From an uncultured Verrucomicrobiae bacterium (GTDB lineage: Bacteria; Verrucomicrobiota; Verrucomicrobiia; Chthoniobacterales; JAATET01), in contig CAVRCI010000002.1 of assembly GCA_963719495.1 (NCBI GenBank), forward strand, positions 64,001 to 128,000: DNA of 64,000 nucleotides. The letters are read 5' to 3'. Below are positions 8,922 to 64,000 of this stretch, in pieces. Under the pieces are notes generated by a model. It was not told where the DNA came from, did no database searches, and worked only from the letters and a program-made list of their open reading frames with translations. A program made the position numbers and the translations under genes. The stretch's first letter is position 1. The number at the start of each line of letters is the position of its first letter.

Positions 8922-9315
8922 GGTCGTCGTGACGGGTCGTAGACACAACGGCCCGCCGTAGCATCCGACAGGGGCTGAACCGTGGAAGTCAGGAACAACG
9001 CGACCACGTGAACAGAGGCTCGAGCCAGACTGGTCGTGGCCATATCTTCTCGTGATGGTGAAATCGTAGCCGAAGCGAATGAATCAACGAAGTCACTGAA
9101 ACGGAAGCTCGACCCGGCTCTGCGGGTGGAGCGGCGAGACGCTGAACGGCGGAGGGAGATCGGAGAGCTGGAAGAGGGCGTCTGTGACGAGGGGAGTCGG
9201 CGGATGGAAGGGGACGGGGTCATCCAGTCGAATCCGCTCGTCACAGTCGCCCGGGTGAATCACCAGCTAATGTCCCTGAACCGAACTCAGTCATTATTTA
9301 TTGTATAAGGCGACC
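8922..9315 (-). other. Cassette family E with GGT/ACC core
   Basis: Ends GGTCGTC...GGCGACC on plus strand; relatives 13478-13759, 52731-53012, 63982-end. Confidence 0.75.
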
Positions 9316-9448
9316 GTCAAGCTCAGCCACCCCGAGCGGATGATCAAGCCAACCCTGGGGTGAGCTGCCAGTAGCGGGTCCGAGCAACCCCGGCCAGCGA
9401 AGCGGCTAGGGGTTGGCTGCAGCGCCTTGTTAGCCTGTATTTGTATTG

Positions 9449-9787
9449 TTATTGAAATGCATCTGCCGGCATAGGCGCTGGTTCAACGATATTCGCTGGC
9501 GGGGGAGTGTTGGGATCGGGGACTTTAAAGATACGATTTGTATAGGGGTCTCTGACTTCGGTTCCTACTGGAAAGCCTCTAACATCAATATAACCTTTTT
9601 CGGGAGCGTATGGGCTTTGAACGAATCCAGGTTTATTACCGACATTGGTTGCTGATTGAATCTGAGCCGCCTGCTTCATGTCGCTGGAATCCGGATTGGA
9701 GGCGTTACCGTCAACCTGATCGCCAACATTTTTCTCTGAGCAAGCGACCAATGATACAATTATAGCGGTTATGATGAGCTTTTTCAT
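9449..9787 (-). CDS. Lipoprotein
   Basis: MKKLII...LVAC lipobox; GFVQSPYAP...DVRGFP.GTEVRDPYT motif. Confidence 0.8.
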   Translation of the reverse strand: MKKLIITAIIVSLVACSEKNVGDQVDGNASNPDSSDMKQAAQIQSATNVGNKPGFVQSPYAPEKGYIDVRGFPVGTEVRDPYTNRIFKVPDPNTPPPANIVEPAPMPADAFQ

Positions 9788-9980
9788 TATTTTACGGTTA
9801 AATAGGCTAACGTCAAGCTCAGCCACCCTGAGCGGGCGACCAAGCCAACCCCACGGTGAGCTGCAGGTAGCGGGACCGAGCAACCCCAGCCAGCGAAGCG
9901 GCTAGGGGTTGGCTGCAGCGCCTTGTTAGGACTGTATTTCCACGTTTCCCGTTCATTGGAAAGTGCATTGGAACAGTCAC

Positions 9981-10406
9981 TTATTTGAAGTTGTCTGGAT
10001 TTTGAACATGGTCGATGGCTACCCCCTTCTTTTTGGAGCTTCTCTTTGAATAAGTGCAGATGCAAATTAGAAAAGATGCTACGCATGCCGCTTTCAGAAT
10101 AAGCAGCAAGATCGGCTGAAACCAAGCTCTCGTAAATACCTCGATAAAATCTGATAGTCCGAATAAAGCAAATGAGATCGTGCATGCCATCAATATGTCC
10201 TGATCTCCCCGACTCTTTTTGCGGTTATTGAGAAATGCAAAGGCGATCGCCAGCCAGAATACTCCTTCGATGAGATTGAATATCTGGTCTAATTCAAGTC
10301 GGGGTATTCGAATAGCGATAAATCCAAGAATCATTGAAGCGATTGCGACTCCCCATATTCCGAATTCCAAAAATGCGGTAGGGAATGCAGTGTATTGCTT
10401 CTTCAT
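9981..10406 (-). CDS. Membrane protein
   Basis: Four hydrophobic segments; ATG just after R' box. Confidence 0.75.
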   Translation of the reverse strand: MKKQYTAFPTAFLEFGIWGVAIASMILGFIAIRIPRLELDQIFNLIEGVFWLAIAFAFLNNRKKSRGDQDILMACTISFALFGLSDFIEVFTRAWFQPILLLILKAACVASFLICICTYSKRSSKKKGVAIDHVQNPDNFK

Positions 10407-10544
10407 GAGTCCTAACGTCAAGCTCAGCCACCCTGAGCGGGCAACCGAGCCAACCCCACGGTGAGCTGCCAAAAGCGGGGCCGAGCAACCCCAGCCAGCG
10501 AAGCGGCTAGGGGTTGGCTGCAGCGCCTTGTTAGGCACGTATTT

Positions 10545-10802
10545 TTAGAGCGGTGCGATGGGGAGCAGCGGCTTTTCCTGTCTCGCGCGGTTCCAGTCCT
10601 CACGCAATTCATCAAGATGTTGGATTCTCCATTCGTCGACGAGTTGAAGTGCCTTTTTTGGGAGGCTACCTTCGTAGATCAGTCCGGTCTCAATCTCGAT
10701 GAGTGCTTCGTGCTCACCGTAGATGGCATGAAAATGGGTTGGTGGGTGATCTCGGTAGTAGAAGCGAATCCGGATCCCGTAGAATCTGCTTACTTCAGGC
10801 AT
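10545..10802 (-). CDS. DUF4160 family protein (TA component)
   Basis: MPEVSRFYGIRIRFYYRDHPPTHFHAIYG...IAPL signature. Confidence 0.88.
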   Translation of the reverse strand: MPEVSRFYGIRIRFYYRDHPPTHFHAIYGEHEALIEIETGLIYEGSLPKKALQLVDEWRIQHLDELREDWNRARQEKPLLPIAPL

Positions 10803-11055
10803 GTTGCACTCCTGATGGAATTGCTCCTGTGATCTCCCGGTATGCAGCATCTGAGCATATCTCAAGATCCTCTGACCATGCGATCTGTCCGAACTCTGCG
10901 ATGTGAACTGTGTTGAAGAATGCCTGGTCTGATAATGAAGAAAATACTCCAGATCGAACAGATTCAGACATATCAATCTGCCCCGTCGTGCCATCGGGAT
11001 ACGAGACCTCAACCTTGTAGTCGGGAAGGGGAGTTACCTTGTAAGGCCTGTTCAT
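10795..11055 (-). CDS. DUF2442 family protein (TA component)
   Basis: V.PLPDYKVEVSYPDG...FSSLSD..FF..V......IAW...LEICSD. Confidence 0.85.
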   Translation of the reverse strand: MNRPYKVTPLPDYKVEVSYPDGTTGQIDMSESVRSGVFSSLSDQAFFNTVHIAEFGQIAWSEDLEICSDAAYREITGAIPSGVQHA

Positions 11056-11274
11056 GCGTCTATAAGGTTATACTGACCTTCCGCATTTGAGAAGCCAGAG
11101 TTTTTTCACGGATGATGGACGAACATGAATTGCATTTCTCATCCGTCGGAGACTGCCCAACGTCAAGCTCAGCCACCCTGAGCGGGTGATCGAGCCAACC
11201 CTGAGGTGAGCTGCCGGTAGCGGGACCGAGCAACCCCAGCCAGCGAAGCGGCTAGGGGTTGGCTGCAGCGCCTT

Positions 11275-11940
11275 GTTAGGCCCGAGGGCGATCTGCTGCC
11301 CAGAACAATCTTGATCTCCAATGAGCCAACCCCGGAACTGATCTGTGAAGCACATATTCTCATCGGCTGACGAAGATAGGAAACCTCAATTCTTACCAAA
11401 AAAAATTCGACCTGCGGTGCTTTCTCGTTTTGGAACCAATGAAGTTTTCGCCTGTCGGTGAATTGAGCTGCGAGCGGGTCGAAAGGGCAAGTCATCCGCC
11501 GGAGGCTATCTCGTGGGAGATGGGGTGGAATCGGAGGGATCAAACTACGCTAAATGGAGCCGATCTGGTCATGAATGGCTCTGCAGGCAAGAGCTGATGG
11601 GCGGTCTATCGAGCAAAGTGCAGCGTTGTCCGATTGCGAGGTCGTCATGGTCGCTGCTCTGAGCGGGCCATGATGACCGGTCGATCTACAAGGCATGAAT
11701 CTCCAACTTCCCAGAGTCAGGTGATCGAGCATCACCCGGACTTGCTCGAACAACAGGTGTATAGATTTGTGGGCGTCTTGGGCAGGTGATGCGAGCCGAT
11801 CTGGAGTGATCCGGGGGATGAGAGGGTGAAAGGGCTGTCCCTCCGGGTCAGCTCCCGATCGGCGGTCGAGACTCCTGAGAACTTCCGCCTCCCGATGTAT
11901 ATATATCTCATCCGCCGGAGGCTCACAGGTATGGCCGAAC
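11275..11940 (-). other. ORF-less cassette family G
   Basis: No convincing ORF; homologous to 42878-43267; two GGA-hairpin motifs and one hairpin+T-tract motif. Confidence 0.7.
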
Positions 11941-12067
11941 GTCAAGCTCAGCCACCCTGAGCGGGCAATCAAGCCAACCCTGAGGTGAGCTGCCAGTAGC
12001 GGGACCGAGCAACCCCAGTCAGCGAAGCGGCTAGGGGTTGGCTGCAGCGCCTTGTTAGCCCTGTATT

Positions 12068-12298
12068 TCAGGTATGCAGCAATTCTCGCGCATGGGGGAT
12101 CTCTTCGGACCGAGCCGACCGAATGTCTTCCGACGACACTGTCACGACTGAAGCTGTTCGTCCCGTCAGCGTCACGAACTCGACCTCGTATGCTTCACCA
12201 GATCCGTAAACGTGAACAACAGCCCCGATGTCCCCAATTTCAAGAGAATCAGTGGGAATGGGGCGGGTTAAAATTACCTGTTCGTGTTCTTGGATCAT
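12068..12298 (-). CDS. DUF4926 family protein
   Basis: MIQEHEQVIL...GDIGAVVHVY...YEVEF signature. Confidence 0.85.
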   Translation of the reverse strand: MIQEHEQVILTRPIPTDSLEIGDIGAVVHVYGSGEAYEVEFVTLTGRTASVVTVSSEDIRSARSEEIPHARELLHT

Positions 12299-12304
12299 GA
12301 TGTT

Positions 12305-12637
12305 CTATAGCGGATATGCTGTGACGAGTCTTGGGAAATCTGCGGCCACGTCGACAATCCAAACTGCTCTGATTGTTGGTGATCGACCGTCCGGGCAATT
12401 GAGTGGACCGTCAACTTGGTATTTTGAGCCGTAGGGAGATTCCGAAACTCCTGTTACCGAGTTGCTCATCGCGTGCGCAATCAACGACCCCGCAAGAATG
12501 TGCCAGTCGTCGACTGTGAATCCGAACGAAGCGAAAAAGATCGCCTTCCCGCGGCCTTCGGGATGGGACGTGGCGAGGAGATACTCTGTGACCTTATCCT
12601 TCTGGATTTGAGCGTTGGGGATGTTTGGTAAAGTCAC
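12305..12637 (-). CDS. DUF6883-like putative toxin
   Basis: KVTEYLL..HPEG.GKA.FF...GF...W....PRLVTAYP; paired with DUF4926. Confidence 0.8.
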   Translation of the reverse strand: MTLPNIPNAQIQKDKVTEYLLATSHPEGRGKAIFFASFGFTVDDWHILAGSLIAHAMSNSVTGVSESPYGSKYQVDGPLNCPDGRSPTIRAVWIVDVAADFPRLVTAYPL

Positions 12638-12812
12638 TACTGGGTTTTACTATCTGACGGCGCCGAGGGCGATCTCTTTAATGGGCTAACGTCAAGCTCA
12701 GCCACACTGAGCGGACAATCGAGCCAACCCCATGGTGAGCTGCCAATAGGGGGACCGAACAACCCCAGCCAGCGAAGCGGCTAGGGGTTGGCTGCAGCGC
12801 CTTGGTAGCTCT

Positions 12813-13094
12813 TTATTTATTCAGGCGACGCATGATCCGCTCGGGATCGGATCGAAGATCGATGATCGCCTGCACGAATATGCGATTCCCTTCAATGGTA
12901 TAAAAGATTCCGAATGGAGATTTTGGAATGAGTAATCGACGAAATGGCTCAGAGTAAATTGGGCCCGACTTCGGAAAGCGGCCGATCTGGGCGATGCGAT
13001 CTTCGAATGCGATGTAAAAGGTGTCTCCGCGATCCGAGTAGATCTCCAAGAATTCGATTTCGGCACCGAGAAGAAGTTCAACTGCGAACCCCAT
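12813..13094 (-). CDS. parE: ParE/RelE toxin
   Basis: FP.SG......RRLLI...PFGIFY.......VQAIIDLRSDP. Confidence 0.85.
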   Translation of the reverse strand: MGFAVELLLGAEIEFLEIYSDRGDTFYIAFEDRIAQIGRFPKSGPIYSEPFRRLLIPKSPFGIFYTIEGNRIFVQAIIDLRSDPERIMRRLNK

Positions 13095-13304
13095 CTACTT
13101 CCCGATTCGGCGCTTGATCGTTTCCCATGGTGTTGAGGAATGTAGACCAGACTTGAAGGCCGAGTATCGTTCTTTGAGGATCTCGACAATGAGAGGATCT
13201 GGTTCAAGTGTCTCGGATATCGAGACTTGCGCCCACAGCTCGGTTGCCAGCTCAAACTTCTGGTCGTCCGTAAGCTGTTCGATTTCTGGTAGCTGCTCGA
13301 TCAT
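13095..13304 (-). CDS. Addiction module antitoxin
   Basis: LT.DQK.ELA.ELW...PWE.IK pattern. Confidence 0.85.
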   Translation of the reverse strand: MIEQLPEIEQLTDDQKFELATELWAQVSISETLEPDPLIVEILKERYSAFKSGLHSSTPWETIKRRIGK

Positions 13305-13310
13305 TTTCGT

Positions 13311-13339
13311 AAACTAGCCGGTAACTCGAAAGATGGCAA
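13311..13339 (-). promoter_or_regulatory. sigma70-like promoter, predicted leaderless
   Basis: TTGCCA-17-TAGTTT-6 nt-ATG. Confidence 0.65.
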
Positions 13340-13477
13340 TTCCCAGATTCATGGAGCTAACGTCAAGCTCAGCCACCCTGAGTGGGGCAACGAACGTCTA
13401 GGCAAGATGTTTGCTGGAAGGGGGATCGGTCGGCCAAGGCTTGCCGGTGATCGGCTAGGGGTTGGCTGCAGCGCCCT

Positions 13478-13759
13478 GGTCGTCGTGACGGGTCGCAGCG
13501 GAAGTGGCAATCAATAGCGTCCGGCAGGAACACGATACGGAAGTCGGGAAGAGCGTGATTTGCTGTAGGAGGTCCGAGTCACTGAGGGCATGCACATATC
13601 TCCTCGTGATGGCGAAAGCGTGGCTGAAAAAGACAGACAAACGAGATTACCAGGAAAGCAGAGGGATGCGGAACGATGAGGAGATGATGAGAACGATACT
13701 CGGACGAATAAGATCTTAAGGTCCTAAACCGGGTGTTCAAATCAATATATTAGGCGACC
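13478..13759 (-). other. Cassette family E
   Basis: GGT/ACC cores; similar to 52731-53012. Confidence 0.75.
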
Positions 13760-13883
13760 GTCAAGCTCAGCCACCCTGAACGGATGACCGAGCCAACCCC
13801 CAGGTGAGCTGCCAGTGGCGGGAACGAGCAACCCCAGCCAGCGAAGCGGCTAGGGGTTGGCTGCAGCGCCTTGTTCGGCTGTA

Positions 13884-14138
13884 TTACCTATCAGCCTTAC
13901 TGACATCGATCACCATCACGGCCTTCACAGCTTCATCAACCCAGTAGGTCACTGCGAAATCACCGATGATCTTCACCTGCCGATCTCGCATGGTAGCGTC
14001 TCTATCTATAAAATCTCCCGGAGAGTCAGAGTGATCGGAGAGTCCTGCAATGAATCGCATAACGTTTCGGCGCTGGGTTCCAGACTTGGGAACCTGATCC
14101 AGAAGATCGACATGCACGAATACGTCATACTGTGACAC
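13884..14138 (-). CDS. Putative RelE-like toxin
   Basis: Homologous to 34369-34632; second gene of small bicistron; start uncertain. Confidence 0.6.
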   Translation of the reverse strand: MSQYDVFVHVDLLDQVPKSGTQRRNVMRFIAGLSDHSDSPGDFIDRDATMRDRQVKIIGDFAVTYWVDEAVKAVMVIDVSKADR

Positions 14139-14145
14139 GAGCTTA

Positions 14146-14343
14146 CTACTGCTGATCAAGCTGCTGCTCGAACTCGCTTGGAGTCAACCAATGGGAAGAA
14201 TCGGAATCCTTGATGCGACTAGACAGAACTGACTGATAATCAGTGTCATGCGAGTGCCTGAGGTGGAATAGGAAGGCCGTGACTTCTCTTTGTTCGCCGT
14301 CAGAGAGGGCAGTCAATCCTCGCTTGATGTCTTCAACACTCAT
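14146..14343 (-). CDS. Putative antitoxin
   Basis: Homologous to 34629-34823; promoter TTGCCG-16-TACTCT-6-ATG. Confidence 0.65.
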   Translation of the reverse strand: MSVEDIKRGLTALSDGEQREVTAFLFHLRHSHDTDYQSVLSSRIKDSDSSHWLTPSEFEQQLDQQ

Positions 14344-14565
14344 AACGAAAGAGTAATCCGAATATTTTGGGCGGCAAGCTACACTTCAGAGCCGAACGTC
14401 AAGCTCAGCCACCCTGAGCGGACAAACAAGCCAACCCTTAGGTGAGCTGCCAATAGCGGGAACGAGCAACCCCAGCCAGCGAAGCGGCTAGGGGTTGGCT
14501 GCAGCGCCTTGTTCGGCTGCATTGGAAGCTCTATTAATCTTCGCAACAATCCAGACGATAAATGT

Positions 14566-15828
14566 CAGGGCCGACGCATCAAAAAAGATCGCGATGGAGG
14601 AAGTTTGGGCTGGTCCTATATTTTCCCGTGCGTAGATGGAGGAGATGCCCGAAACGCATCCCATCCAAAAAAGCCTGATCGAAGAGTTCAAACGCATAGA
14701 AGATCCGCGAGTATCGCGCACTCGCTACCATGAGTTGAGCGACATTCTAGTGATCGCGATCTCGACGCTTTTGTGCGCGGGCACGTCTTTCTACGACATG
14801 GAAGAGTTCGGTCGGGCCAAGGAAAAATGGTTCCGAACGTTTCTGAAGTTGCCCAACGGCATCCCCAGCCACGACACGTTCAATCGCGTGTTTTCGCTGA
14901 TCAATCCGGCGAGTTTTCACGAGTGCTTCATGAGGTGGACGCAGAGCGTGCGCGAACACATCGACCGGGAAATCGTCGCCGTCGACGGCAAAGCCCTCCG
15001 CGCAGCCTGCCAGGACGGCGGGAATGTGCGCTTCATCGTCAATGCTTGGGCAACCAGCAATCGACTTGTCCTGGGGCAGCTCGAAGTGCCCGACAAAACC
15101 AACGAAATCACGGCGGTTCCCACGCTGCTGCGAGCGTTGGAACTGCGTGGCTGCATCGTGAGCACCGACGCGATGGGGTGCCAGAAAGAGATCGCCCGAG
15201 AAATCATCGAGGCCGACGCCGATTACGTTCTTGCTCTCAAAGGCAATCACCAAACCGTCCATGAGGAAGTCAAAAGCTTCCTCGATGCCGAATTTGATCG
15301 CGAGCTCCAGAGCCCTCCAGTGCCCAAACCATCCACGAAGAAACCACCAAGCGCTCCCACTTTCGCATTCCTGGAAACCGTCGACAAAGGCCACGGGCGC
15401 TTGGAAATCCGGCGCTATTTCCAAAGCGTCGCCATCGACTGGTTCGCAGACATCAGCCAATGGGAAGGGCTGCAGAGCGTCGGAATGGTCGAATCCAGCC
15501 GCGAAATCAAAGGTCAAATCAGCGTGGAAAGACGCTACTTCCTGAGCAGCCTGCCCCTCGACGTCGGACTTTTCGCTCAAGCCGTCCGTGGACATTGGGG
15601 CGTGGAAAACTCCTGCCACTGGGTCTTGGACGTCATCCTGCGCGAAGATGGTTCCCGCGCCCGAACCGCTCACGCCGCCGAGAATCTCGCCACCCTGCGC
15701 CGCCTCGCCCTAAACCTGCTCTCTCGCGAAAAGTCCAAAAAACGCAGCATCAAGACCAAACAACTCGTCGCAGCCTGGGATCACGACTTCCTCCTGCACC
15801 TCCTCAATTTTTAGATGCGTCGGCCCTG
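14566..15828 (+). mobile_element. ISAs1 family element
   Basis: IR CAGGGCCGACGCATC at both ends; 10 bp target duplication CGATAAATGT. Confidence 0.95.
14636..15814 (+). CDS. ISAs1 transposase
   Basis: DPR, GIPSHDTF, AVDGK, NEITA, DAMGCQ, LKGN, HGRLE.R, HWGVEN motifs. Confidence 0.95.
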   Translation: MEEMPETHPIQKSLIEEFKRIEDPRVSRTRYHELSDILVIAISTLLCAGTSFYDMEEFGRAKEKWFRTFLKLPNGIPSHDTFNRVFSLINPASFHECFMRWTQSVREHIDREIVAVDGKALRAACQDGGNVRFIVNAWATSNRLVLGQLEVPDKTNEITAVPTLLRALELRGCIVSTDAMGCQKEIAREIIEADADYVLALKGNHQTVHEEVKSFLDAEFDRELQSPPVPKPSTKKPPSAPTFAFLETVDKGHGRLEIRRYFQSVAIDWFADISQWEGLQSVGMVESSREIKGQISVERRYFLSSLPLDVGLFAQAVRGHWGVENSCHWVLDVILREDGSRARTAHAAENLATLRRLALNLLSREKSKKRSIKTKQLVAAWDHDFLLHLLNF

Positions 15829-16330
15829 CGATAAATGTAGTGACGAGCGCTAGAAGCCCGAACCCGGAAATTGCTAGACCAAAAGAGGACGTGATGAGAA
15901 CTCCAGAAATATTCGTTGCCAGTTCCTTTGGATCCGCGACCCCTGAAGATCGCATGTGATCTCTGAACGAATACATGTTGTGAGCGAGACCTGCTGCGAA
16001 AATAGCGAATCCGCCGAGAAATGCCGTTGCAGATGAAGTGAAGGCCATAAAATACGGGTTTCTCATGATTAGAATGTTGTCGCCTGCTTAAGATTATACC
16101 GACTCGACGCGACCTCCATCGTATTGCGTGCCGGAGTCTGGATATGGAGTAAAAGAACTGGTTGGTTGCGTTACGAGTTGCTTAGGAATAGATCATCCAC
16201 CGGAGGTCGAGCCGAACGTCAAGCTCAGCCACCCTGAGCGGGCGACCAAGCCAACCCCCAGGTGAGCTGCCAGTAGCGGGACCGAGCAACCCCAGCCAGC
16301 GAAGCGGCTAGGGGTTGGCTGCAGCGCCTT

Positions 16331-16836
16331 GTTCGACGCGCATCTGTTCAAACTACGGATATCGTGACTTCCTCAAGCCGACCCCTCCGTATCTCTACCG
16401 AAGGCACTTCCACAATGAACATAGAATCTCAGGAAAGGCTCCGCAATCGAGGTTAGTAAATTGCGCCTGGAAGATTGTATGGGGGTTGAAGCGCAATTGG
16501 AAACGAGGGGCGGGAATCAAGCTCACAAATATTCGCCTGGAAGATTGTTGGTAATGGGAAGCTGAATTGGAACGGAGGGAAGGGAATCAGGCTCACCAAT
16601 ATGCGCTTGGAAGGATTCTGGGGGCTTCTGGTGACTTCCAAGTGATTGTTCGAAATCACCAAAATATTATCCACGGTGGGCAACTCTGAGCGCCGCCTAG
16701 CCATCGCGTATACCTCCAGCGCTGGTCGAAAATAGAGGGACCGACGGTCTCAAGCTGGATCTGGTCTAGTCTGATTTCGTCCGGACAACTGTAATCAAAA
16801 AATAGTCATCCGCCGGAGGCTCACAATGAGTCGAAC
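16331..16836 (-). other. ORF-less cassette family A (diverged)
   Basis: Ends match 4400-4900; internal repeat retained. Confidence 0.8.
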
Positions 16837-16950
16837 GTCAAGCTCAGCCACCCTGAGCGGGTGACCGAGCCAACCCTTAGGTGAGCTGCCAGTAGCGGGA
16901 CCGAGCAACCCCAGCCAGCGAAGCGGCTAGGGGTTGGCTGCAGCGCCTTG

Positions 16951-17283
16951 TTAGCCTGTATTTGATTGTTTTTCTAACTGGAGAATAATTCTTGCCATCG
17001 CTCTGTCTTCAAAAATAGAAAAAGTGTGGAAGACGGCGACCAGAAACAATACAGTCGAGAGTCGTGAAGAGTCACCCGTCGACAAGAGAATGATAGCAAG
17101 TGTGATCAAAAGAGTCGGACCAGTGAGTTGCCACCAAGAGTATTTCGGATCAATGCGTTTTAGCAGGCGTCTCTCGATCCAACTGCGCCCCTCAAATTTT
17201 ATCTGAGTGCAACTGGGGCTCGGTGGTCTCAGCTCGAATCTGGTCCGTGGCGGTTCCGGGACTGTCCATTTGAAAGTGTTCAT
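16951..17283 (-). CDS. Hypothetical membrane protein
   Basis: ORF stops in R'' box; two hydrophobic segments. Confidence 0.6.
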   Translation of the reverse strand: MNTFKWTVPEPPRTRFELRPPSPSCTQIKFEGRSWIERRLLKRIDPKYSWWQLTGPTLLITLAIILLSTGDSSRLSTVLFLVAVFHTFSIFEDRAMARIILQLEKQSNTG

Positions 17284-17522
17284 TAGAGGCTTAAGTTAAA
17301 AATTTGGGCGCGTCGAAGAGTTGATCGACTGCTTTGTCCGAATGGGTCGATGTAATGTCGGAGGCGATTGAACGATGATATATATTCACTTCGAATTTAT
17401 TTAGGCTAACGTCAAGCACTGTCACCCCGAACGGGTGTGCGAACTACGGGTTGTGATCAACTGGAGGAAAGTCGTGGACAAAAGTTGGCAGCGGCGCGGC
17501 TAGGGGTTGGCTGCTGCGCCTT

Positions 17523-18043
17523 GTTAGACTCGTATTCGTATTGAGATGCTGCCGCCTATGGTGAAAATGATGGAGTTGGTTTCACCAGTTGCATTTGAAT
17601 GGAGTCCGAAATGATACGGCAACAGGAAGTGATGTCAGCTTCAAGATTGAAACGAAGCAGTATGGCGCATGAGTGATTGGAAGCGACAGGGGTGTTTTCC
17701 GAATGTATGAATTCCGATCCGTTCGGTAGCTGGATGCATAGGACTTGAGTCGTTTCGTTTGGTTATCGTTGGGTCCGGCAGTCTATCCAAATATTCAATA
17801 AGTGGCTTCCTCGTGAAAGGCACCTTAATTCTCAACGCAAACTCCGTGAAAAGTGACAGGTTAGCGAAAATGCAGAGTTTCAGAGGCAGAAACACGATGT
17901 TCAAAAATTGTCAAAAAAAATCGGGTGCTGCGCACCAAATATGACTCGTCTTCGCCTCGTTTGGGGTCCGGGCTCATCATTGCGGGTGGCAAACAAGTTG
18001 GAGTTACTCGGAGTCATTCCGCCGGAGGCTCATGGAGTCTAAC
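17523..18043 (-). other. ORF-less cassette family B
   Basis: Same length and blocks as 7891-8411. Confidence 0.75.
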
Positions 18044-18157
18044 GTCAAGCTCAGCCACCCTGAGCGGGCAATCAAGCCAACCCTGAGGTGAGCTGCCAAT
18101 AGCGGGACCGAGCAACCCCAGCCAGCGAAGCGGCTAGGGGTTGGCTGCAGCGCCTTG

Positions 18158-47691: not shown

Positions 47692-47698
47692 ATCATGA

Positions 47699-52537: not shown

Positions 52538-52730
52538 GATCCAGCCCGGTCGAAAGGTGGTTTTCTCGTTCAGCAGGTTACTCGGGGTATTCATCCACCG
52601 GAGGTCGAGCCGAACGCCAAGCTCAGCCACCCCGAACGGGGATCCGAACTCTGAAGAAGGATGTAAACTGCCACCCGGAAGTCAGTGCAACAGCGGCCGG
52701 TGATCGGCTAGGGGTTGGCTGCAGCGCCCT

Positions 52731-53012
52731 GGTCGTCGGGACGGGTCGCAGCGGAAGTGGCAATCGATAGCGTCCGGCAGGAACAAGATAAGGAAGTTGG
52801 GAAGGGGGTGATTTGCTGCAAGAGGTCCGAGTCACTGATGGCATGCACATATCTCCTCGTGATGGCGAAAGCGTGGCAAAAAAGACAGACAAACGAGATT
52901 ACCAGCAAAGCAGAGGGACGCGGAACGATGAGGAGATGATGAGAACGATACTCGGACGAATAAGATCTGAAGGTCGTAAACCGGGCGTTCAAAACAGATA
53001 TATTAGGCGACC
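52731..53012 (-). other. Cassette family E
   Basis: GGT/ACC cores. Confidence 0.75.
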
Positions 53013-53099
53013 GTCAAGTTCAGCCACCCTGAACGGGTGATGAACAATGACAGATAATCAACTGCCCGTGGTGGGTGGCGCAACCCAGCCGCGCAGCGG

Positions 53100-53537
53100 C
53101 TAAGGGTTGGCTGCAGCGCCTTGTTCGGCTGTATTATCGCTCTTCTTCGAAAGCCGTTCCTTCAGATCAGTTCTTTCACGAATAAAATAGTCGATCTTGT
53201 TCCCGAGAGTCATAAGTGTGTCCTCATTTGAATCTTCACTAGAACGTGCTCGAGCAGATAGATAATCAATGGTCACATCGATCATGTCAGTCTCTACGGA
53301 TGAGATTGACTGGTTGATTTTGGCGGCGGCGTCTTGCTTGCCCTCAGATAATAGAACCGCTCTTTTCACGAGCAAATCTTTGTAGGCCTCCGAGAGAGCT
53401 ACAATCTTGGAATTTTTAATTTGAAGAAGTAGCTGATTGTCAGTGGGAATCGATCGACTGGGGAGTTCATCAGCGTGCACCATCGATGAGGTCGCGATCA
53501 CGGTCGAGAGAAGGAGGTAGGAAAGGCTGAGTTTCAT
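53100..53537 (-). CDS. Secreted helical hypothetical protein
   Basis: Signal peptide VHA/D. Confidence 0.72.
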   Translation of the reverse strand: MKLSLSYLLLSTVIATSSMVHADELPSRSIPTDNQLLLQIKNSKIVALSEAYKDLLVKRAVLLSEGKQDAAAKINQSISSVETDMIDVTIDYLSARARSSEDSNEDTLMTLGNKIDYFIRERTDLKERLSKKSDNTAEQGAAANP

Positions 53538-55710: not shown

Positions 55711-55852
55711 AATTGTATGGCCCTAACGTCAAGCTCAGCCACCCTGAGCGAATGACCGAGCCAACCCCGAGGTGAGCTGCCAATGGCGGCACCGAGCAAC
55801 CCCAGCCAGCGAAGCGGCTAGGGGTTGGCTGCAGCGCCTTGTTAGCTAGCAT

Positions 55853-56344
55853 TTATTTTTCTGAGATAAAAGCTTTGTAAACTTCAGAAGTTTCCTCAGG
55901 ACTAAGAATTGTTATAACTCCGGCATCGGAAATCTGATATACGTATTTTATCGAAGCCGAATTTCTGAGTAAACCAAAATACAGAATAATGTAGGAGTCT
56001 TTCGATATCTTCGGTAGGAAGGCCTCCAGAATGTAGATGTTGACCTCTTCTGAAGCAGTAATGTAGTCGTGTGAAATTTGTCGAACATTTGAAGTAACTA
56101 TTGATGATAGTATTATCTGACCATCGTAAAAAATACTCCATTGGCTGTAGTCGATCGGACTCTTCGATTCTTTCTCCGGAGTCCATGACCTTAAAAGAAT
56201 ATGTCCGTCTTTAATGATTGTTTCAACAGTAGCAGATTTACCATTTATTATAATGGTAGAGTTCGTGTTCTCAAAGGCAGAAAGCGAATGAGGAAGTAAC
56301 AAGAATGCTAAAATTGCTTGGATGATTGCGTGTTTCATATTCAT
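55853..56344 (-). CDS. Hypothetical secreted protein
   Basis: Signal peptide; AT-rich. Confidence 0.7.
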   Translation of the reverse strand: MNMKHAIIQAILAFLLLPHSLSAFENTNSTIIINGKSATVETIIKDGHILLRSWTPEKESKSPIDYSQWSIFYDGQIILSSIVTSNVRQISHDYITASEEVNIYILEAFLPKISKDSYIILYFGLLRNSASIKYVYQISDAGVITILSPEETSEVYKAFISEK

Positions 56345-56466
56345 AATAGCTAACGTCAAGCTCAGCCACCCTGAGCGGGCAATCGAGCCAACCCTGAGGT
56401 GAACTGCCAGTAGAGGGTCCGCGCAATCCCAGCCGCGAAGCGGCTAGGGGTTGGCTGCAGCGCCTT

Positions 56467-56848
56467 GTTCGGCTCTAACCGCACAAGCTACGAAGGGTGT
56501 TGCAATCACGATGCCAACCCCTCCTTGAATTTGACCGTATGCATTTTACTATTGGCCGTTCGGATAAGGGGGAATGCCGTAAACTAGATGAAACTGAGCA
56601 GCGTGTGGAATGAGATAAGACTGGAACCGCAGTCAAAAAGTGGGACCTGAGAATGACCAAAAGATTTCGCTTTCGCTTCGCGAAAGAATGCGGATGAAGG
56701 ACTGATGGTGGAATTTCGGTGATCCGTCGCCGATGGTTCATCTTCGGAGCACTGCTGGGCAACATCATATTTTATAGCTCCGTCAAGCGGTGTTGGGAGC
56801 GATCAACAAGTTGCTCAGACGATATCATCCGCCGGAGGCAAGCCGAAC
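56467..56848 (-). other. ORF-less cassette family F
   Basis: Homologous to 39121-39500. Confidence 0.75.
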
Positions 56849-56963
56849 GTCAAGCTCAGCCACCCTGAGCGGGGCGACGAAAGTCTAGGAAAGGTGTTTG
56901 CGGGAAGGGGATCGGTCGGCCAAGGCTTGCCTCGGGCCGGCTAGGGGTTGGCTGCAGCGCCTT

Positions 56964-57314
56964 GTTCGTCGGAAGAGGTGACTGCACAATGGAGGACTTG
57001 ATCGTCCGACAGGCCGACGATGGGTCAAACCCAGCAAGCGGCTTCGTTAGAGCATTCAGTAGAAGAGGCTTCTGTGGTCCAGATTGACTACGCATTATAA
57101 ATATATTGCTCGTGACAAGAGCAGGCCGGAACGGATTCTGGATGGATCTACTCATGCCGCGTGAGCGCCCCAAGCGTGCATGGCAGGCGAATAATCGTTG
57201 GCGTCGAATCGGGAGTGATCAATAAAAAACCAGAATCGTGCTCAATCGTATGACGAAGGGAACCGAACAACTCTGAACCTTCCCTTGATCTCAACCCCAA
57301 TAAATCAGGCGAAC
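56964..57314 (-). other. ORF-less cassette family C, copy 8
   Basis: Similar to 3320-3669, +1 nt. Confidence 0.85.
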
Positions 57315-57440
57315 GTCAAGCTCAGCCACCCTGAGCGGGTGATCGAGAAAACTTTGAGATGAACTGCCGGAAGCGGGACCGAGCAACCCCAGCCAGCGAA
57401 GCGGCTAGGGGTTGGCTGCAGCGCCTTGTTCGGCTGTATT

Positions 57441-57836
57441 TCATTCGAGGTGTGCGATGGTCCTCGAAAATTCGGGAAGTCCCAATTTGACAGAGACGAC
57501 AGAAAACTCGTGATCGGTGAGTGGTCCAACTACTGAATCTTCTGGGTTTGCATAGACGCAATCTTTGGATGTGTCTAAGTAGAAGAAATTTGTAACCGCG
57601 CGATTGTTGTTAGGATGCTGCTTTGCAACGATGTATTTTTGATTGTATCCGATGGAAAAGACCGTTTCAGGTATCCTTCCGATTGCTGAACCATCACCCG
57701 AGTCGTAGGAAACGTTCATCTGTGAATCTGTATCAACGGCGATCAATCGATATGGTCCGACGATCTCTTCATCATGCACGAACCCGCAGCCGACAAAGCA
57801 GAATGCCGTAATAAAATAGAGCGAAAGTCGAATCAT
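57441..57836 (-). CDS. Lipoprotein (DUF3997-like)
   Basis: FVGC lipobox; IP..V..IGYN..YIVAKQ...VVGPLT..EF. Confidence 0.72.
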   Translation of the reverse strand: MIRLSLYFITAFCFVGCGFVHDEEIVGPYRLIAVDTDSQMNVSYDSGDGSAIGRIPETVFSIGYNQKYIVAKQHPNNNRAVTNFFYLDTSKDCVYANPEDSVVGPLTDHEFSVVSVKLGLPEFSRTIAHLE

Positions 57837-58046
57837 TGGTATTTAGAGGACTCCGGTGACCGATAGCAGAAGAAGTGGCAATATTCTCATATTGCTCAGG
57901 AATATTTCATCCACCGGAGGTCGAGCCGAACGTCAAGCTCAGCCACCCTGAGCGGGGCAACGAACGTCTAGGCAAGGTGTTTGCGGGAAGGGGATCGTTC
58001 GGCCAAGGCTTGCCTCAAGCCGGCTAGGGGTTGGCTGCAGCGCCTT

Positions 58047-58396
58047 GTTCGTCGGAAGAGGTGACTGCACGATGGAGGACCCGATCGTCCGACAGGCCGA
58101 CGATGGTCAAACCCAGCAAGCGGCTTCGTTAGAGCATTCAGTAGAAGAGGCTTCTGTGGTCCAGATTGACTACGCATTATAAATATATTGCTCGTGACAA
58201 GAGCAGGCCGGAACGGATTCTGGATGGATCTACTCATGCCGCGTGAGCGCCCCAAGCGTGCATGGCAGGCGAATAATTCTTGGGGTCGAATCGGGAGTGA
58301 TCAATGAAAAACCAGAATCGTGCTCAATCGTATGCCGAAGGGAATCGAGCAACTCTGAACTTTCCCTTGATCTTAACTCCAATAAATCAGGCGAAC
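58047..58396 (-). other. ORF-less cassette family C, copy 9
   Basis: Similar to 3320-3669. Confidence 0.85.
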
Positions 58397-58509
58397 GTCA
58401 AGCTCAGCCACCCTGAGCGGGCATTCAAGCCAACCCTGAGGTGAGCTGCCGATAGCGGGACCGAGCAACCCCAGCCAGCGAAGCGGCTAGGGGTTGGCTG
58501 CAGCGCCTT

Positions 58510-58792
58510 GTTCGGATCCGCCCGTTCGTGGTCCCGTCGGATCTACAATTTGCAGCCTTGCTCGTCGCCATGCCGATTGATAATCGAGCCATACCAGCGA
58601 GTCAGACCGATGCGCTTCGCTACGAAAATTGACGTCGAATGGAATGCGCAAAAATACCTTGGTTTTGGCTTTCAGATACACAAATTCACCTCATTGTGGA
58701 CCCCTTCCGAATACGCCAATTTTATACAAAGCAAATTACGAACGAGCTTGCTTGCAGTTTGGGCTTCGAAGACCAGGGGCATAGGTCCGAAC
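58510..58792 (-). other. Cassette family D, copy 4
   Basis: Similar to 8525-8806. Confidence 0.7.
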
Positions 58793-58882
58793 GCCAAGCT
58801 CAGCCACCCTGAGCGGGTGACCGAGCCAACCCTGAGGTGAGCTGCCAGTAGCGGGACCGAGCAACCCCAGCCAGCGAAGCGG

Positions 58883-59398
58883 CTAGGGGTTGGCTGCAGC
58901 GCCTTGTTCGGCTGTATCTTTTATCGGCGCGGGCTCGATCTGAGAAAAAACATAAACAATCTTTCCGTCATTAATGACAGGTGCGGCGATGATATATCGA
59001 TTGTATTTGCCAAAGTGATTGATCGAAAATGCGGCATTAATTGCAGCTACTTGCTTTGGAGCTATTGCAATTGGTTGGTGCGACAATCGCGATGGAATCT
59101 GAAGAGTGATTTCATGTAATGCGTCTGTCTCATCGACTCCGTAAAGTCGAAATCCTCGATTTGGAATCGTTCGAAAATCTATTGTTCCTCTGGGATGCGA
59201 GATTGTCTTAAAATATACTGTTGCCGTCACAAAATCAGAATTCACTGATTGAAAATTGAGTGACACGTTGAATGAATGATCTGGAGGTCCCCACGTTAAA
59301 TGGGTCGGTTCCACATCGAGAATATAGTAGGGCTTATTTAGCGCGCTGGCGGCCGTTAAGAGGCACAAAGAGCAAAAGACTGAAATAGGTAGACGCAT
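58883..59398 (-). CDS. Hypothetical secreted protein
   Basis: Signal peptide ASA; fills cassette. Confidence 0.7.
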   Translation of the reverse strand: MRLPISVFCSLCLLTAASALNKPYYILDVEPTHLTWGPPDHSFNVSLNFQSVNSDFVTATVYFKTISHPRGTIDFRTIPNRGFRLYGVDETDALHEITLQIPSRLSHQPIAIAPKQVAAINAAFSINHFGKYNRYIIAAPVINDGKIVYVFSQIEPAPIKDTAEQGAAANP

Positions 59399-59544
59399 TT
59401 TTAAATGAGCCGAACGTCAAGCTCAGCCACCCTGAGCGGGCGACCGAGCCGACCCTGAGGTAAGCTGCCAGTAGCGGGACCGAGCAACCCCAGCCAGCGA
59501 AGCGGCTAGGGGTTGGCTGCAGCGCCTTGTTCGGTCGTATGATC

Positions 59545-59919
59545 TCACTTGATGGGCTCGCCGACGAATACCAAGCAATCGTTCGGATCACCAATGTGAA
59601 ACTCTGTCATGCCGTAATCGCGGTCATGTAGATCTCTTACCTTGTATTGGTCTCGGAAAGTTGAAACGTGCTCCCACAAATGATGAATGTCTACAACCTG
59701 AATATAAATCTCAGTGTGCCCTCGAACCGCATCCAATACTGACGAATCGGCTGCCTTCATCAGGTGGATTGAATGGGTATCTCGTTCAATAATCGAGTAG
59801 TCGGCTGATTTCATTGTGACCGTGAAACCGAGGATGTCGGTATAGAATGAAATAGATTGATCCATGTCGGCAACTGCGAGCATGGGGCTAATTCCTGTGA
59901 CCTTGAATTCAATATTCAT
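59545..59919 (-). CDS. VOC/glyoxalase/bleomycin-resistance family protein
   Basis: P.L.V.DM..SI.FY..ILGF...YGM.EF...DP. Confidence 0.9.
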   Translation of the reverse strand: MNIEFKVTGISPMLAVADMDQSISFYTDILGFTVTMKSADYSIIERDTHSIHLMKAADSSVLDAVRGHTEIYIQVVDIHHLWEHVSTFRDQYKVRDLHDRDYGMTEFHIGDPNDCLVFVGEPIK

Positions 59920-60096
59920 TTTGAGAACAGTTTAGTAACTGAGTATTGGAAGATTTTACGCGAATGAATTATGAATTTCATCCGCCGGAGGCTTCATGGA
60001 CCGAACGTCAAGCTCAGCCACCCTGAGCGGGCAAACAAGCCAACCCTGAGGTGAGCTGCCAATAGCGGGTCCGAGCAACCCCAGCCAGCGAAGCGG

Positions 60097-60657
60097 CTAG
60101 GGGTTGGCTGCAGCGCCTTGTTCGGCTGTATTGCGTTTCGAAGTAGTTTCTGGTTGAGCAAGTAGTGGCTCCAAGACAACTCTGAGATCATCAGGGTTGT
60201 AATGCTTGCTCTGGCGAATGTGTCTAATCGGAATCTGAGCGCCAGTCATGATCTCGTCGACTAATATATCTCGTTGCTGTCGGGATCTGAGTCTGTGGCT
60301 AGAATCGTCAAGTTCAATAACGGCGATGATGTCATAGGTGAGGCGATTACATATGACAAAATCCACGTGTTTCGAGGATATCTTGTTGAATGCTCGTATA
60401 TATTCTTTGTTTTTGTGTATTTTCGCTGGTTCCACAATGTCAGCGAGTCTGACCTTCCCTGTCACGGTGAAAGTCCGGGGAATCACTTGTCGAAGAACCT
60501 CAAGAAATTGCAGCTCAGGGGCTGTGTATAGGGACTGTCGAGAGACGTATCTGAAAGACGTTGATTGCGACCGAGCTGTATTGAGAGCCTTGGAAACAAA
60601 CTGAAGAATCAGTAGGATTGCAACGAGAGCGACAGTCCATGGAAGTATTTCACTCAT
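60097..60657 (-). CDS. DUF2726 domain protein
   Basis: KVRLADIV...KHVDFVIC...IELDDSSH...RD. Confidence 0.88.
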   Translation of the reverse strand: MSEILPWTVALVAILLILQFVSKALNTARSQSTSFRYVSRQSLYTAPELQFLEVLRQVIPRTFTVTGKVRLADIVEPAKIHKNKEYIRAFNKISSKHVDFVICNRLTYDIIAVIELDDSSHRLRSRQQRDILVDEIMTGAQIPIRHIRQSKHYNPDDLRVVLEPLLAQPETTSKRNTAEQGAAANP

Positions 60658-60786
60658 TGTATGAAAGCCGAACGTCAAGCTCAGCCACCCTGAGCGGGCA
60701 ATCAAGCCAACCCTGAGGTGAGCTGCCAATAGCGGGAACGAGCAAGCCCAGCCAGCGAAGCGGCTAGGGGTTGGCTGCAGCGCCTT

Positions 60787-61287
60787 GTTCGACGCGCATC
60801 TGTTCAATCTACGCATATCGTGACTTCCTCAAGCCAACCCCTCCGTATCTCTACCGAAGGCACTCCAATAATGAAGATCAAACCTTCGAAGAGGCTTCGT
60901 GATTGGAATCACTGAAATGCGATTGGAAGATTGTAGAGAGTAAAGGCTGAACTGGAGCGGGAGGCTTGGGATCAAGCTCACAAATATACGTCTGGAAGTT
61001 TGTAGGGGGTAGAGGCTTAATTGGAATAGAGAGGGGGCATCAAGCTCACAAATAGAAGCTTAAAACGATTGTTGGGACATCTGGTGACTTCCGAACGATT
61101 GGTCGAAAATCAAAATATTCTATCCGTTGAGAAACTGTGTTTGTTGCCTAGGCCCCGATCCTCCGTCCTACGCTAGTCAAAAAAATAGAACCCGACCGCT
61201 TGAAACAAGATGTGGTGTTCCCTGACGGCGTCCGAATATGTAAGAGCGAAATATAGTCATCCGCCGGAGGCTCACAATGAGTCGAAC
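60787..61287 (-). other. ORF-less cassette family A
   Basis: Similar to 4400-4900. Confidence 0.8.
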
Positions 61288-61412
61288 GTCAAGCTCAGCC
61301 ACCCTGAGCGGGCAACCAAGCCAACCCCACGGTGAGCTGCCGGAAGCGGGACCGAGCAACCCCAGCCAGCGAAGCGGCTAGGGGTTGGCTGCAGCGCCTT
61401 GTTCGGCCCTCA

Positions 61413-61820
61413 TTATAGAATTCGAAACCTTTGCTTCGTATTCTCTGGCCAACCATGAAAAATCGAAATCATTTGAACGGCGTAGAAGCTTCTGATGATA
61501 CAGATCTGGAATGGGGACTCACCGGATCTGTAGACGACTAAAACCCCATCTTTTCTAAGTGATAGAATTGCAGACTCATCCTCTTGAAAATTTACGGAAA
61601 ATGATGTGCCGTCCTTCCGGTAGACTTGAATAGTTGGAGGATTAGCCGTAAAGGAAACATGTCCGGAGCGAAATCCTTCGAAAAGCCCGTAGTAGATGGA
61701 TAGTGAGTTATCGTCAGTTAACTCGAACTTCAGTGGGATGAGATACTGTCCGCGATCCTGAATGGACTCTTTGTAATAGAGTCCGCAGACGAGCGGGAAC
61801 AAGAAATGGCGTCTAGACAT
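61413..61820 (-). CDS. Hypothetical protein
   Basis: Fills cassette. Confidence 0.6.
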   Translation of the reverse strand: MSRRHFLFPLVCGLYYKESIQDRGQYLIPLKFELTDDNSLSIYYGLFEGFRSGHVSFTANPPTIQVYRKDGTSFSVNFQEDESAILSLRKDGVLVVYRSGESPFQICIIRSFYAVQMISIFHGWPENTKQRFRIL

Positions 61821-61967
61821 GAATATTTGGCCGAACGTCAAGCTCAGCCACCCTGAGCGGGTGAACGAGCCAACCCTGAGGTGAGCTGCCAATAGAAGGT
61901 CCGAGCAACCCCAGCCAGCGAAGCGGCTAGGGGTTGGCTGCAGCGCCTTGTTCGGCTGTATCGCATT

Positions 61968-62360
61968 TTAGTTTCGATGGCTCAGTCCGGGGACTCTAAA
62001 TTCTTGAAGGCACTTCTCGCAGCGGTGGACTCTCCAGCTTGCCGACTCAATCTCGATATATCGGGGAAGCTCGGAAAGCCGGTGCATGCAAACAGGGCAG
62101 TTGGGAACAGCGAGAACTGCTCGATATATGAGATACCCGACAAGCCAAACAGATAATCCGATAGCCGCGACCACCAGACAAGCGTTCGCCCAGTGATTGT
62201 CCTGAAGATGGTTACTAAAAGTCGGTCCTGCCATGATTATCACTATGACAATCGCAAAAATAGCAAGTGATTTAGCAAATGTCTCTCGATGGAATCCGGA
62301 GACTTCACGTGGTAACTCTTTATCTTCAAGCATTGTGGAAGTTGATGGGCTTGGGTTCAT
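61968..62360 (-). CDS. Two-TM protein with C-terminal Zn ribbon
   Basis: CPVC...CEKC after two hydrophobic helices. Confidence 0.7.
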   Translation of the reverse strand: MNPSPSTSTMLEDKELPREVSGFHRETFAKSLAIFAIVIVIIMAGPTFSNHLQDNHWANACLVVAAIGLSVWLVGYLIYRAVLAVPNCPVCMHRLSELPRYIEIESASWRVHRCEKCLQEFRVPGLSHRN

Positions 62361-62628
62361 GTCAGTCTCGAAAAGACAGAGTTGGTAATCGAACAACGAA
62401 CTCGACTGGAGACAAATTGGACGATCCGAAGAGGTCCTGGGTCATGCAGCAAGTTGCTCAGAAATATCATCCACCGGAGGTCGAGCCGAACGTCAAGCTC
62501 AGCCACCCTGAGCGGGCAACCAAGCCAACCCAACGGTGAACTGCCGGAAGCGGGAACGAGCAACCCCAGCCAGCGAAGCGGCTAGGGGTTGGCTGCAGCG
62601 CCTTGTTAGCCCTGTATTGAATTTGTTC

Positions 62629-62991
62629 TCATATCGGAAGGATTCGAACACGAGTCCGATTCGGAAGAATTGTAACAATGGCACCTTTTTCGAGTTGTTC
62701 GGAAAATGAATCTATTACTGTTAGAACGGTTGATCCGAGCGCTTCGGGCGTGATATCGTCAACGCGAGCTTGAATGACGCTGGGCTTGTGGGCGTGGGAA
62801 TGAGCAAGCAGCGTTCCAAAGTCGAGATCGTGCGTGAAAATCACGAGGTTCTCAGCTCGAGCGTGTTCGAAAATTACATGGTCCTTCGCATTCCGTGGTC
62901 CTAGAGACGACCAATGGAATGAATGAATCTTGGTTTGGTCGAAGAATGGAATCCAGTCTTCGGGTAGGCACACATCGACGAGAATCGTCAT
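62629..62991 (-). CDS. DUF5615 PIN-like toxin (paralogue of 25899-26261)
   Basis: Few substitutions from first copy. Confidence 0.88.
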   Translation of the reverse strand: MTILVDVCLPEDWIPFFDQTKIHSFHWSSLGPRNAKDHVIFEHARAENLVIFTHDLDFGTLLAHSHAHKPSVIQARVDDITPEALGSTVLTVIDSFSEQLEKGAIVTILPNRTRVRILPI

Positions 62992-63212
62992 GCAGCCTGT
63001 AGTTCTGCATCATAGGCCTCCGCGAGCCAGGTAGCGTATGAGAGAGCAGCGGAAATATCCTCAGCTTCGAGAAAAGGATACATACCAAGAACCTTGGCTC
63101 GGTCGTGACCAGCGGCAATTAACCCTGTAATCGTGCCGACAGTTATCCGCATGTTCCGAATACAGGGCTTCCCGCCCATTAACGCTGGATCTCTTGTGAT
63201 ACGCTCGTGCAT
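62988..63212 (-). CDS. DUF433 antitoxin (paralogue of 26258-26482)
   Basis: Same translation. Confidence 0.9.
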   Translation of the reverse strand: MHERITRDPALMGGKPCIRNMRITVGTITGLIAAGHDRAKVLGMYPFLEAEDISAALSYATWLAEAYDAELQAA

Positions 63213-63383
63213 GCCGAAACGTAGAACATTGCCGACGGCGCGACAACAGCAATTTATGGGCTAACGTCAAGCTCAGCCACCCCGAACGGGCGACCGGATA
63301 CTACTGGTGATCAACTGCCGATTGCGCTTCCGCAACCCCAGGAGCGAAGCGGATAGGGGTTGGCTGCAGCGCCTTGTTAGGTC

Positions 63384-63851
63384 TCAGGAATTATTGTTGT
63401 TTCGAGCAGACCGGCGCCAAGTAATAACTGCTAGCCAGAAACAAAATATCTGAGTGAGCTCAGGAATCTCAGGAATGAAGTCAATTGTGCATCTTCTAGT
63501 GAAAGGGTGAGTTGTAGTGATTACTCCAACCGGTTGTGATCCTGTAGATATGTCATAGCAACGAGTAAAAGGCGATTGCGCTTTCGAAAGAAGAGAGCCT
63601 TCCGGAGTGTCAATTTGAAAGGATCGAAACATGGCGTTCGGCTTGTGTGCTTCTGAAATCGTGCTGGTATCAGAGAGTAACGACCAGCGCCCGCTCATCC
63701 ATCCGTGTTTTTGTATCGTGTAACAAGTTCTATTGTATTGAATGGAGCCCTGTTCAGTAAAAAAGTCGAATTCAGCAATCGCTTGACCGGTAGGTGATCC
63801 CTCAATATGAAAGTTCCAAGAACAAAGAGATTCTGGCAGGCAAGTGAGCAT
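63384..63851 (-). CDS. Hypothetical protein, LURP-one/scramblase-like beta fold
   Basis: Repeating beta-strand pattern and C-terminal hydrophobic helix. Confidence 0.6.
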   Translation of the reverse strand: MLTCLPESLCSWNFHIEGSPTGQAIAEFDFFTEQGSIQYNRTCYTIQKHGWMSGRWSLLSDTSTISEAHKPNAMFRSFQIDTPEGSLLSKAQSPFTRCYDISTGSQPVGVITTTHPFTRRCTIDFIPEIPELTQIFCFWLAVITWRRSARNNNNS

Positions 63852-64000
63852 TATAATAATGACCTAACGCCAAGCTCAGCCACCCCGAACGGGGGACCAA
63901 ATTCTGAGCTTGATGTGATGGAATGGACGGAAGTCAGAACAAGAGCGCCGGGTGACGGCTAGGGGTTGGCTGTAGCGCTCTGGTCGTCGGGACGGCTCGT

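Follow-up and report, generated by a model that had tools for sequence, protein, structure and literature searches.

Natural families of gene-less integron cassettes with a compensated position-2 change in the attC core triplet

The triplet GTT in the R' box of attC and its complement AAC in R'' were called absolutely conserved in the integrons characterised by the time of PMC2811028, a statement repeated in the available parts of PMC2727003 and PMC7439510. It has been treated as the sole fixed sequence feature of attC, and some surveys filter on it, as in the accessible text of PMC6557892, where GTT/AAC is an essential filter. Here, we describe cassettes that depart from this rule in a stretch of 64,000 nucleotides from an uncultured Verrucomicrobiae bacterium (assembly GCA_963719495.1, contig CAVRCI010000002.1; G000:C2:64001-128000), referred to as the window. 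The window falls inside the ~150-kb array, read on the minus strand, of a sedentary chromosomal integron, and it holds copies of a gene-less cassette group, family E, whose core reads GGT/ACC.

That the core can change has been known from mutants of attC(aadA7) assayed with the integrase IntI1. Recombination of compensated attC-GGT with attI1 reached 1.0 of wild type (PMC2811028 Table 4), compensated attC-GAT reached 1.9 and attC-GCT 0.15, while wild-type attC with attI1-GGT gave 0.96, and identity between the partners was needed at position 1 only (PMC2811028). A non-complementary GTT/ATC site recombined with attI1 at 6e-6 compared with 2.2e-3, a ~370-fold reduction. Frumerie et al. showed that the mechanism does not require the triplet and proposed that it is kept for cassette exchange between integrons (PMC2811028). 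The engineered -GGT and -GAT mutants carry position-2 substitutions identical to those described here; they are laboratory constructs tried for attC x attI1 with IntI1 only, whereas the present changes occur in natural multi-copy lineages. Moreover, E cassettes and their GAT counterparts necessarily stand in mismatched arrays, a mismatch that PMC2811028 tried once, as GTT/ATC. Tolerance of the core change is therefore old knowledge, and the natural multi-copy compensated families appear to be new: attC families that occur in nature with a compensated core other than GTT are not described in the literature surveyed, with subscription journals mostly uncovered and supplements unread.

In overall build, the locus resembles sedentary chromosomal integrons, with more than 200 attC sites in one array adjoining intI and an attI-like site. 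The sites are VCR-like imperfect palindromes of 124-130 bp with R''/L''/L'/R' boxes, an extrahelical base and a symmetric 5/5 spacer, and differ from sedentary chromosomal attC in having GGT/ACC (GAT/ATC in congeners) in place of the conserved GTT/AAC (PMC2811028; available part of PMC2727003). As far as the accessible portions of bioRxiv 2023.11.21.568050 and PMC6557892 describe them, the gene-less cassettes of Vibrionaceae superintegrons and oral metagenomes are likewise short, non-coding, repeated and interspersed, and the first of these sources attributes promoter function to those of Vibrio. Both studies, in the same portions, used or required a GTT/AAC core, so that E-type cassettes would be filtered out or rewritten. 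Non-canonical sites that are used by IntI or proposed to tune array stability have also been described in the available text on delta-attI cassettes (PMC12901181) and attG (mentioned in PMC12614218). According to that text, delta-attI replaces attC by attI remnants and attG is a genomic secondary target, whereas E keeps the full attC hairpin and only its core is changed.

A mismatch-tolerant scan of the G000 genome located 213 attC sites, 208 of them on C2 (~27-175 kb; 10 in an inverted segment) and five on C7. Beside the array lies an IntI gene (C2:176417-177349; TIGR02249 425.6 bits, cut-off 265), with the attI-like site ...CCAATATACTG↓TTCGCC divergent from it (the arrow marks the crossover), and the motif CCAATATACTG↓TT recurs at three IntI loci of relatives. 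For cassettes with bodies of up to 1300 bp, the cassette's own start was compared with its own R'' box. The scored set comprised 199 cassettes in G000 and 1119 in six genomes, namely G000 and five congeners (G001-G005) with the same attC type.

On the minus strand, E cassettes start with G↓GTCGCC and carry their own R'' box GACGACC, so that the excised circle pairs GGT with ACC. A first-pass annotation of the window had proposed this pairing, and its seven motif coordinates are all correct as reverse complements (plus-strand GGCGACC at 9309, 13753 and 53006; GGTCGTC at 8922, 13478, 52731 and 63982). The pairing can be refined to R''/R' complementarity at 6/7 bases plus a G.T wobble at position 6. 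Because the flanking conserved attC arms fix the register, the T2>G / A>C substitution is genuine and no shifted site. The GGT/ACC core replaces the supposedly invariant GTT (R') and AAC (R'') in all nine intact E copies, the tenth copy being split by an insertion sequence (IS). Among the scored G000 cassettes, 181 were GTT/GTT, nine GGT/GGT and nine uncompensated or misregistered. Uncompensated position-2 changes affected 0.58% of starts and 0.38% of R'' boxes in the 1039 non-variant cassettes of the six genomes, and the resulting joint chance of compensation (~7e-6 per cassette) excludes coincidence. The E attC sites (127-130 nt, against a range of 57-142 nt in the available part of PMC2727003) are predicted to form bottom-strand hairpins with an L box, an extrahelical base and an unpaired central spacer, and their R'' and R' boxes are complementary in the excised circle, with a predicted pairing of ~0.9. 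They delimit cassettes in the array linked to intI and attI, with the crossover after the first G. The dispersal of the copies, together with the published mutants, suggests that IntI acts on E attC in its folded, single-stranded form.

Four E copies reach into the window, all on the minus strand. An E-long cassette (8806..9315) starts G↓GTCGCC at 9315/9314 and has a 386-bp body; its own attC (8800..8928) contains R'' GACGACC (8928-8922), L boxes and the spacer TTGGC, and its R' in the array is GTCGGAC, the next cassette having lost a T. The attC of its upstream neighbour (9309..9435) presents R'' GGCTAAC to R' GGTCGCC, a position-2 mismatch. An E-short cassette (13361..13759) has a 274-bp body, and its own attC (13355..13484) places GACGACC opposite GTTAGCT, while the upstream neighbour's attC (13753..13879) places GCCGAAC opposite GGTCGCC. 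A second E-short cassette (52615..53012) faces GTTCGGC with the GACGACC of its own attC (52609..52737), and its upstream neighbour's attC (53006..53129) again faces GGTCGCC with GCCGAAC. The fourth copy is represented by an E-long 3' end (63862..64000) with its own attC (63988-63862); its G↓GTCGCC start lies just beyond the window, at G000:C2:128375. As a control, a cassette of the canonical gene-less family F0 (3204..3668, minus strand; 30 genome copies) reads GTTCGCC / GACGAAC with the same position-6 wobble.

What had been taken as one family resolves into two homologous gene-less subfamilies, E-long (386-bp body, five copies) and E-short (274 bp, four copies and the split one), which are 55-64% identical in alignment and score z 8.4-8.6 against shuffles. 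The earlier description of the copies as diverged can be refined: within subfamilies, identity is 83-97% (E-long) and 86-100% (E-short), and one E-short pair, window 52615-53012 and G000:C2:53058-53454, is identical at 397/397 positions. All nine upstream and all nine downstream neighbours of E belong to different families, bearing out the annotation on this point. No coding frame is conserved: stops and frameshifts vary between copies, a 101-codon frame is open in just 3/5 E-long copies, and substitutions show no codon-position bias in any of the six frames, with a synonymous share of 0.17-0.34 compared with 0.69 (the clearest coding case) and 0.45 in two controls (a third, at 0.35, was uninformative). 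Searches for known elements were negative for six open reading frames (ORFs) of E/F0 in Pfam and across the whole window in Rfam, and RNAalifold on the five E-long copies gave no covariation support (2/102 pairs). A sigma-70-like match crosses the junction of one E copy and is absent from another. E-short had no match in plasmids, and in 60 relatives the E bodies were not found, only the attC part being matched. Although the heptamers of E and canonical F0 are similar, the data do not establish that E descends from F0 (z 0.1-3.2; nhmmer negative). The end spacer of the E attC is TTGGC in 7/9 sites, compared with the host's TTGAC, and TTGGC is the common spacer where a related attC type forms arrays in metagenomes, which suggests that E was imported from another lineage. 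Two E-short copies (attC at window 13355-13484 and G000:C2:37616-37745) have a chimeric attC with an F0-type interior, from which homologous exchange between attC arms can be seen to occur. The split E-short copy (G000:C2:46501-55636) carries a 17-bp duplication, and its halves stand in opposite orientation, bounding an inverted array segment of ~9 kb.

The annotation had also suggested a survey of arrays in relatives, and this revealed GAT/ATC families in three of the five congeners. Over all six genomes, 77/1119 scored cassettes have a compensated non-GTT core, 68 being GAT/ATC and nine GGT/ACC, with no GCT. The GAT/ATC cassettes are distributed as 28/181 in G002, 14/61 in G003 and 26/384 in G004, and GGT/ACC occurs solely in G000; G001 (133 cassettes) and G005 (162) have no compensated variant. 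Among the 1119 cassettes, none has a compensated change at position 1 or 3 and none a change to C. This natural spectrum (68 GAT, 9 GGT, 0 GCT) matches the published tolerance of 1.9, 1.0 and 0.15. Three further G004 cassettes, set among different neighbours, combine a GAT start with an ACC R'', which is wobble-compatible; the core halves are thus compensated in 77/80 variant cassettes, the remaining three being GAT/ACC. The GAT families are homologous to each other and to canonical GTT families (z 22-28; nhmmer), and the change therefore arose within a gene-less superfamily. No homology was detected between E and the GAT families, and with E included the variants go back to about two origins. 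At least three copies per genome are present in 6/7 variant families compared with 30/521 other families. An internal inverted repeat, GCTCATCG...CGATGAGC, is kept in the gene-less GAT superfamily and in its canonical sister, with apparent compensatory changes, the families being located in the G002:C4, G003:C1 and G004:C7 arrays (L035-L044, L051-L065); this stem suggests a structured RNA or single-stranded DNA element.

In a wider search, the ACC pattern was found in 2/17 genomes of the family and the ATC pattern in 3/17, where fragmented assemblies may hide arrays. Of 38 genome loci, 12 yielded no compensated cassette, and 26 on one contig had been dropped beforehand. An E-specific 28-mer had no metagenome match. 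A broader pattern matched 40 metagenome loci, of which 29 were canonical AAC in another register, five had other heptamers (an attC right arm was absent from all four that were inspected) and six were GTCCATC attC sites, three of three with a visible start beginning G↓ATGGAC. These G↓ATGGAC...GTCCATC cassettes lie on three metagenome contigs, and their bodies have no detectable kinship to the GAT or E families.

Taken together, E is a related pair of gene-less cassettes that changed position 2 of the core on both sides and that the ordinary resident IntI probably inserts and re-excises singly. The circle is self-complementary (GGT/ACC). IntI1 does not check position 2 for homology, and by analogy a circle with a compensated GGT or GAT core would integrate at attI at the wild-type rate, turning the attI core into GGT, and the next cassette would still enter. 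Once E is in the array, the attC hairpins on both flanks are mismatched at position 2. These sites may still recombine, perhaps more slowly, often enough for single-cassette spread. Drift probably maintains the variant in gene-less lineages that expand inside a genus and have little need to trade cassettes with other integrons. Such natural families are the exception that the exchange proposal of Frumerie et al. predicts, as only the tolerated position and bases are affected and only multi-copy gene-less lineages are involved.

Movement of single cassettes is suggested by variant copies of at least 99% identity, which form 21 pairs in eight clusters. None of these pairs shares an upstream or a downstream neighbour, and four of the eight clusters lack any matched junction. 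In the identical G000 pair, identity ends seven bases upstream and six bases downstream of the junctions, and the neighbours differ, which supports the view of the first annotation that these cassettes were mobilised with the altered core. Position-2 mismatches affect 22/213 array attC sites in G000, 54/190 in G002, 27/66 in G003 and 54/404 in G004 (10-41%), and the likely single-cassette movement suggests that mismatches at this frequency do not freeze an array. Such frequencies, in four arrays with recent single-cassette duplication, sit awkwardly beside the ~370-fold penalty, and the E and GAT arrays offer ready natural substrates on which to measure how excision and array stability depend on core pairing.

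Several points weigh against this interpretation. With IntI1, attC x attI1 recombination reached just 6e-6 at the site mismatched in position 2, compared with 2.2e-3, and the published rates come from IntI1 in E. coli and not from this integrase. Fold predictions put R-box pairing at ~0.9 in the circle and 0.01-0.10 in the array, compared with ~0.5 for canonical array sites (23% of 60 such sites being <0.05). Matched variant-variant tandems number 5 against 9.7 expected (P=0.054), compared with 55 against 51.5 for canonical ones, and near-identical siblings are slightly rarer for variants (21/80) than for canonical high-copy cassettes (109/326; no formal test). With about two origins, moreover, the variant counts are not independent, and the multi-copy enrichment does not stand for many separate events.

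A less likely alternative is a ratchet, in which the cassette inserts at full rate and both flanking attC sites then become far less excisable, so that E accumulates and stabilises its neighbours while further copies arise through infrequent excision, through matched tandems or from a pool outside the array. It is conceivable, though we consider it unlikely, that gene-less cassettes twice evolved such an 'easy in, hard out' core, which pairs with itself in the circle and is mismatched on both sides when integrated. If so, non-coding cassettes could accumulate and divide superintegron arrays into blocks that shuffle more slowly, with no need for toxin-antitoxin addiction. Besides the published penalty, the predicted loss of pairing, the tandem deficit and the multi-copy enrichment, a ratchet would fit the slight rarity of near-identical siblings among neighbours of variants (11/94 vs 67/377, P=0.21). 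The first-pass annotation had likewise proposed that E mismatches the upstream neighbour's attC, possibly locking it. That mismatch is seen (AAC/GGT, with the neighbour arriving later), but E's own attC, which the annotation overlooked, is equally mismatched (ACC/GTT), and the lock, plausible from the published drop, showed no sign of being strong in genome tests, which presume that cassettes insert at attI and that donors are mostly in the same genome. Under a strong lock, E would have to travel together with its neighbours, and this is not supported, as none of the 21 pairs shares one. Variants are spread evenly along the arrays (n=77, mean 0.45, KS P=0.29) with no distal enrichment; in near-identical two-copy neighbours, the variant-adjacent copy is proximal four times and distal five times, without polarity, and one cassette sandwiched by two variants has a 100% twin closer to the array start. 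The neighbours' attC arms show no extra decay (0.40 vs 0.42 mismatches, P=0.92), still higher copy numbers are found in canonical gene-less families (88, 56, 33 and 30), and G003, with 41% of its attC sites mismatched, still has recent duplicates in its array. A partial ratchet effect is possible. A built-in lock through an alternative register, with R'' pairing the right spacer, was also considered and rejected, as no consistent covariation was seen across families. As a separate observation, low-copy neighbours of variants less often lack a long ORF (17/94 vs 121/377, P=0.008), with the same direction in G000, G002, G003 and G004.

Block duplication, homologous recombination or gene conversion might instead have spread the copies, with the altered sites inert; this would account for the F0-type attC interior of some E-short copies, and conversion could explain near-identical pairs. 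Such spread is improbable, however, as every neighbour of E differs, identity stops at the cassette boundaries, conversion is unable to put a cassette into new junctions, and the core halves are compensated in all variant cassettes except the three wobble-compatible GAT/ACC ones. In one side case, the cassette directly downstream of an E copy (window 12684-12810) has an uncompensated R'' AGCTACC where the rest of its family has AAC; in this single case, a GGT neighbour once present may have been the source of a conversion templated by the hairpin.

As to the integrase, the annotation had offered relaxed or second specificity. Relaxed specificity is real but not special, being documented for standard integron integrases, as IntI1 already accepts GGT. 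The array-linked IntI is conventional, keeping the VchIntIA residues Y18, T22, Y26, K160, G161 and H271 (2A3V alignment, counted by eye), and the core-contacting residues are identical in the main IntIs of G001, G002, G004 and G005, with and without variants; in G003, whose array runs off the contig, no IntI above the cut-off was found. The paralogue search returned a single divergent gene (G000:C1:371896-372837), which is full-length, scores 248.7 bits and aligns to VchIntIA across the integron-specific insertion. Its score lies under the 265 cut-off, RWRC replaces the RRHH of IntIs, and the 40 kb around it hold no attC array, one weak arm-like match being no attC, so that it lacks both the score and the linked attI/attC of an integron integrase. 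Its orthologues (61-73% identity) occur in G001 and G005, the two genomes that lack variant cassettes, and a search of G002, which is 97% complete and has 28 such cassettes, found none. A second integrase specific for GGT/ACC sites is thus very improbable, and given the tolerance of IntI1, the conventional resident IntI and a second gene that does not track the variants, no special integrase is needed. Finally, a sequencing or assembly artefact, for which a 16-contig assembly and a highly repetitive array might speak, is scarcely credible given the same change at both ends of 10 diverged copies, its counterparts in three other genomes and three metagenome contigs, and a 328-nt contig of another run, X1, that spans a whole E-short copy (13452-13779) with 10 differences, none at the two core bases; in a contig of X2, from the same study as X1, 20 of 21 differences are listed, none of these at the core.

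Some minor features of these integrons may be added. The intI ORF on G000:C2 (L001:829-2436) encodes 535 aa, with ~210 extra N-terminal residues ahead of the IntI domain, and long open frames are seen at intI in relatives too. The array-less IntI-like gene is kept in 5/6 congeners (61-73% identity). Family F0 makes up 30/199 scored G000 cassettes and also holds the first position at attI, and every congener has its own dominant gene-less family, with up to 88 copies. The motif CCTCCGGCGGA was seen repeatedly close to the cassette starts in many cassettes.

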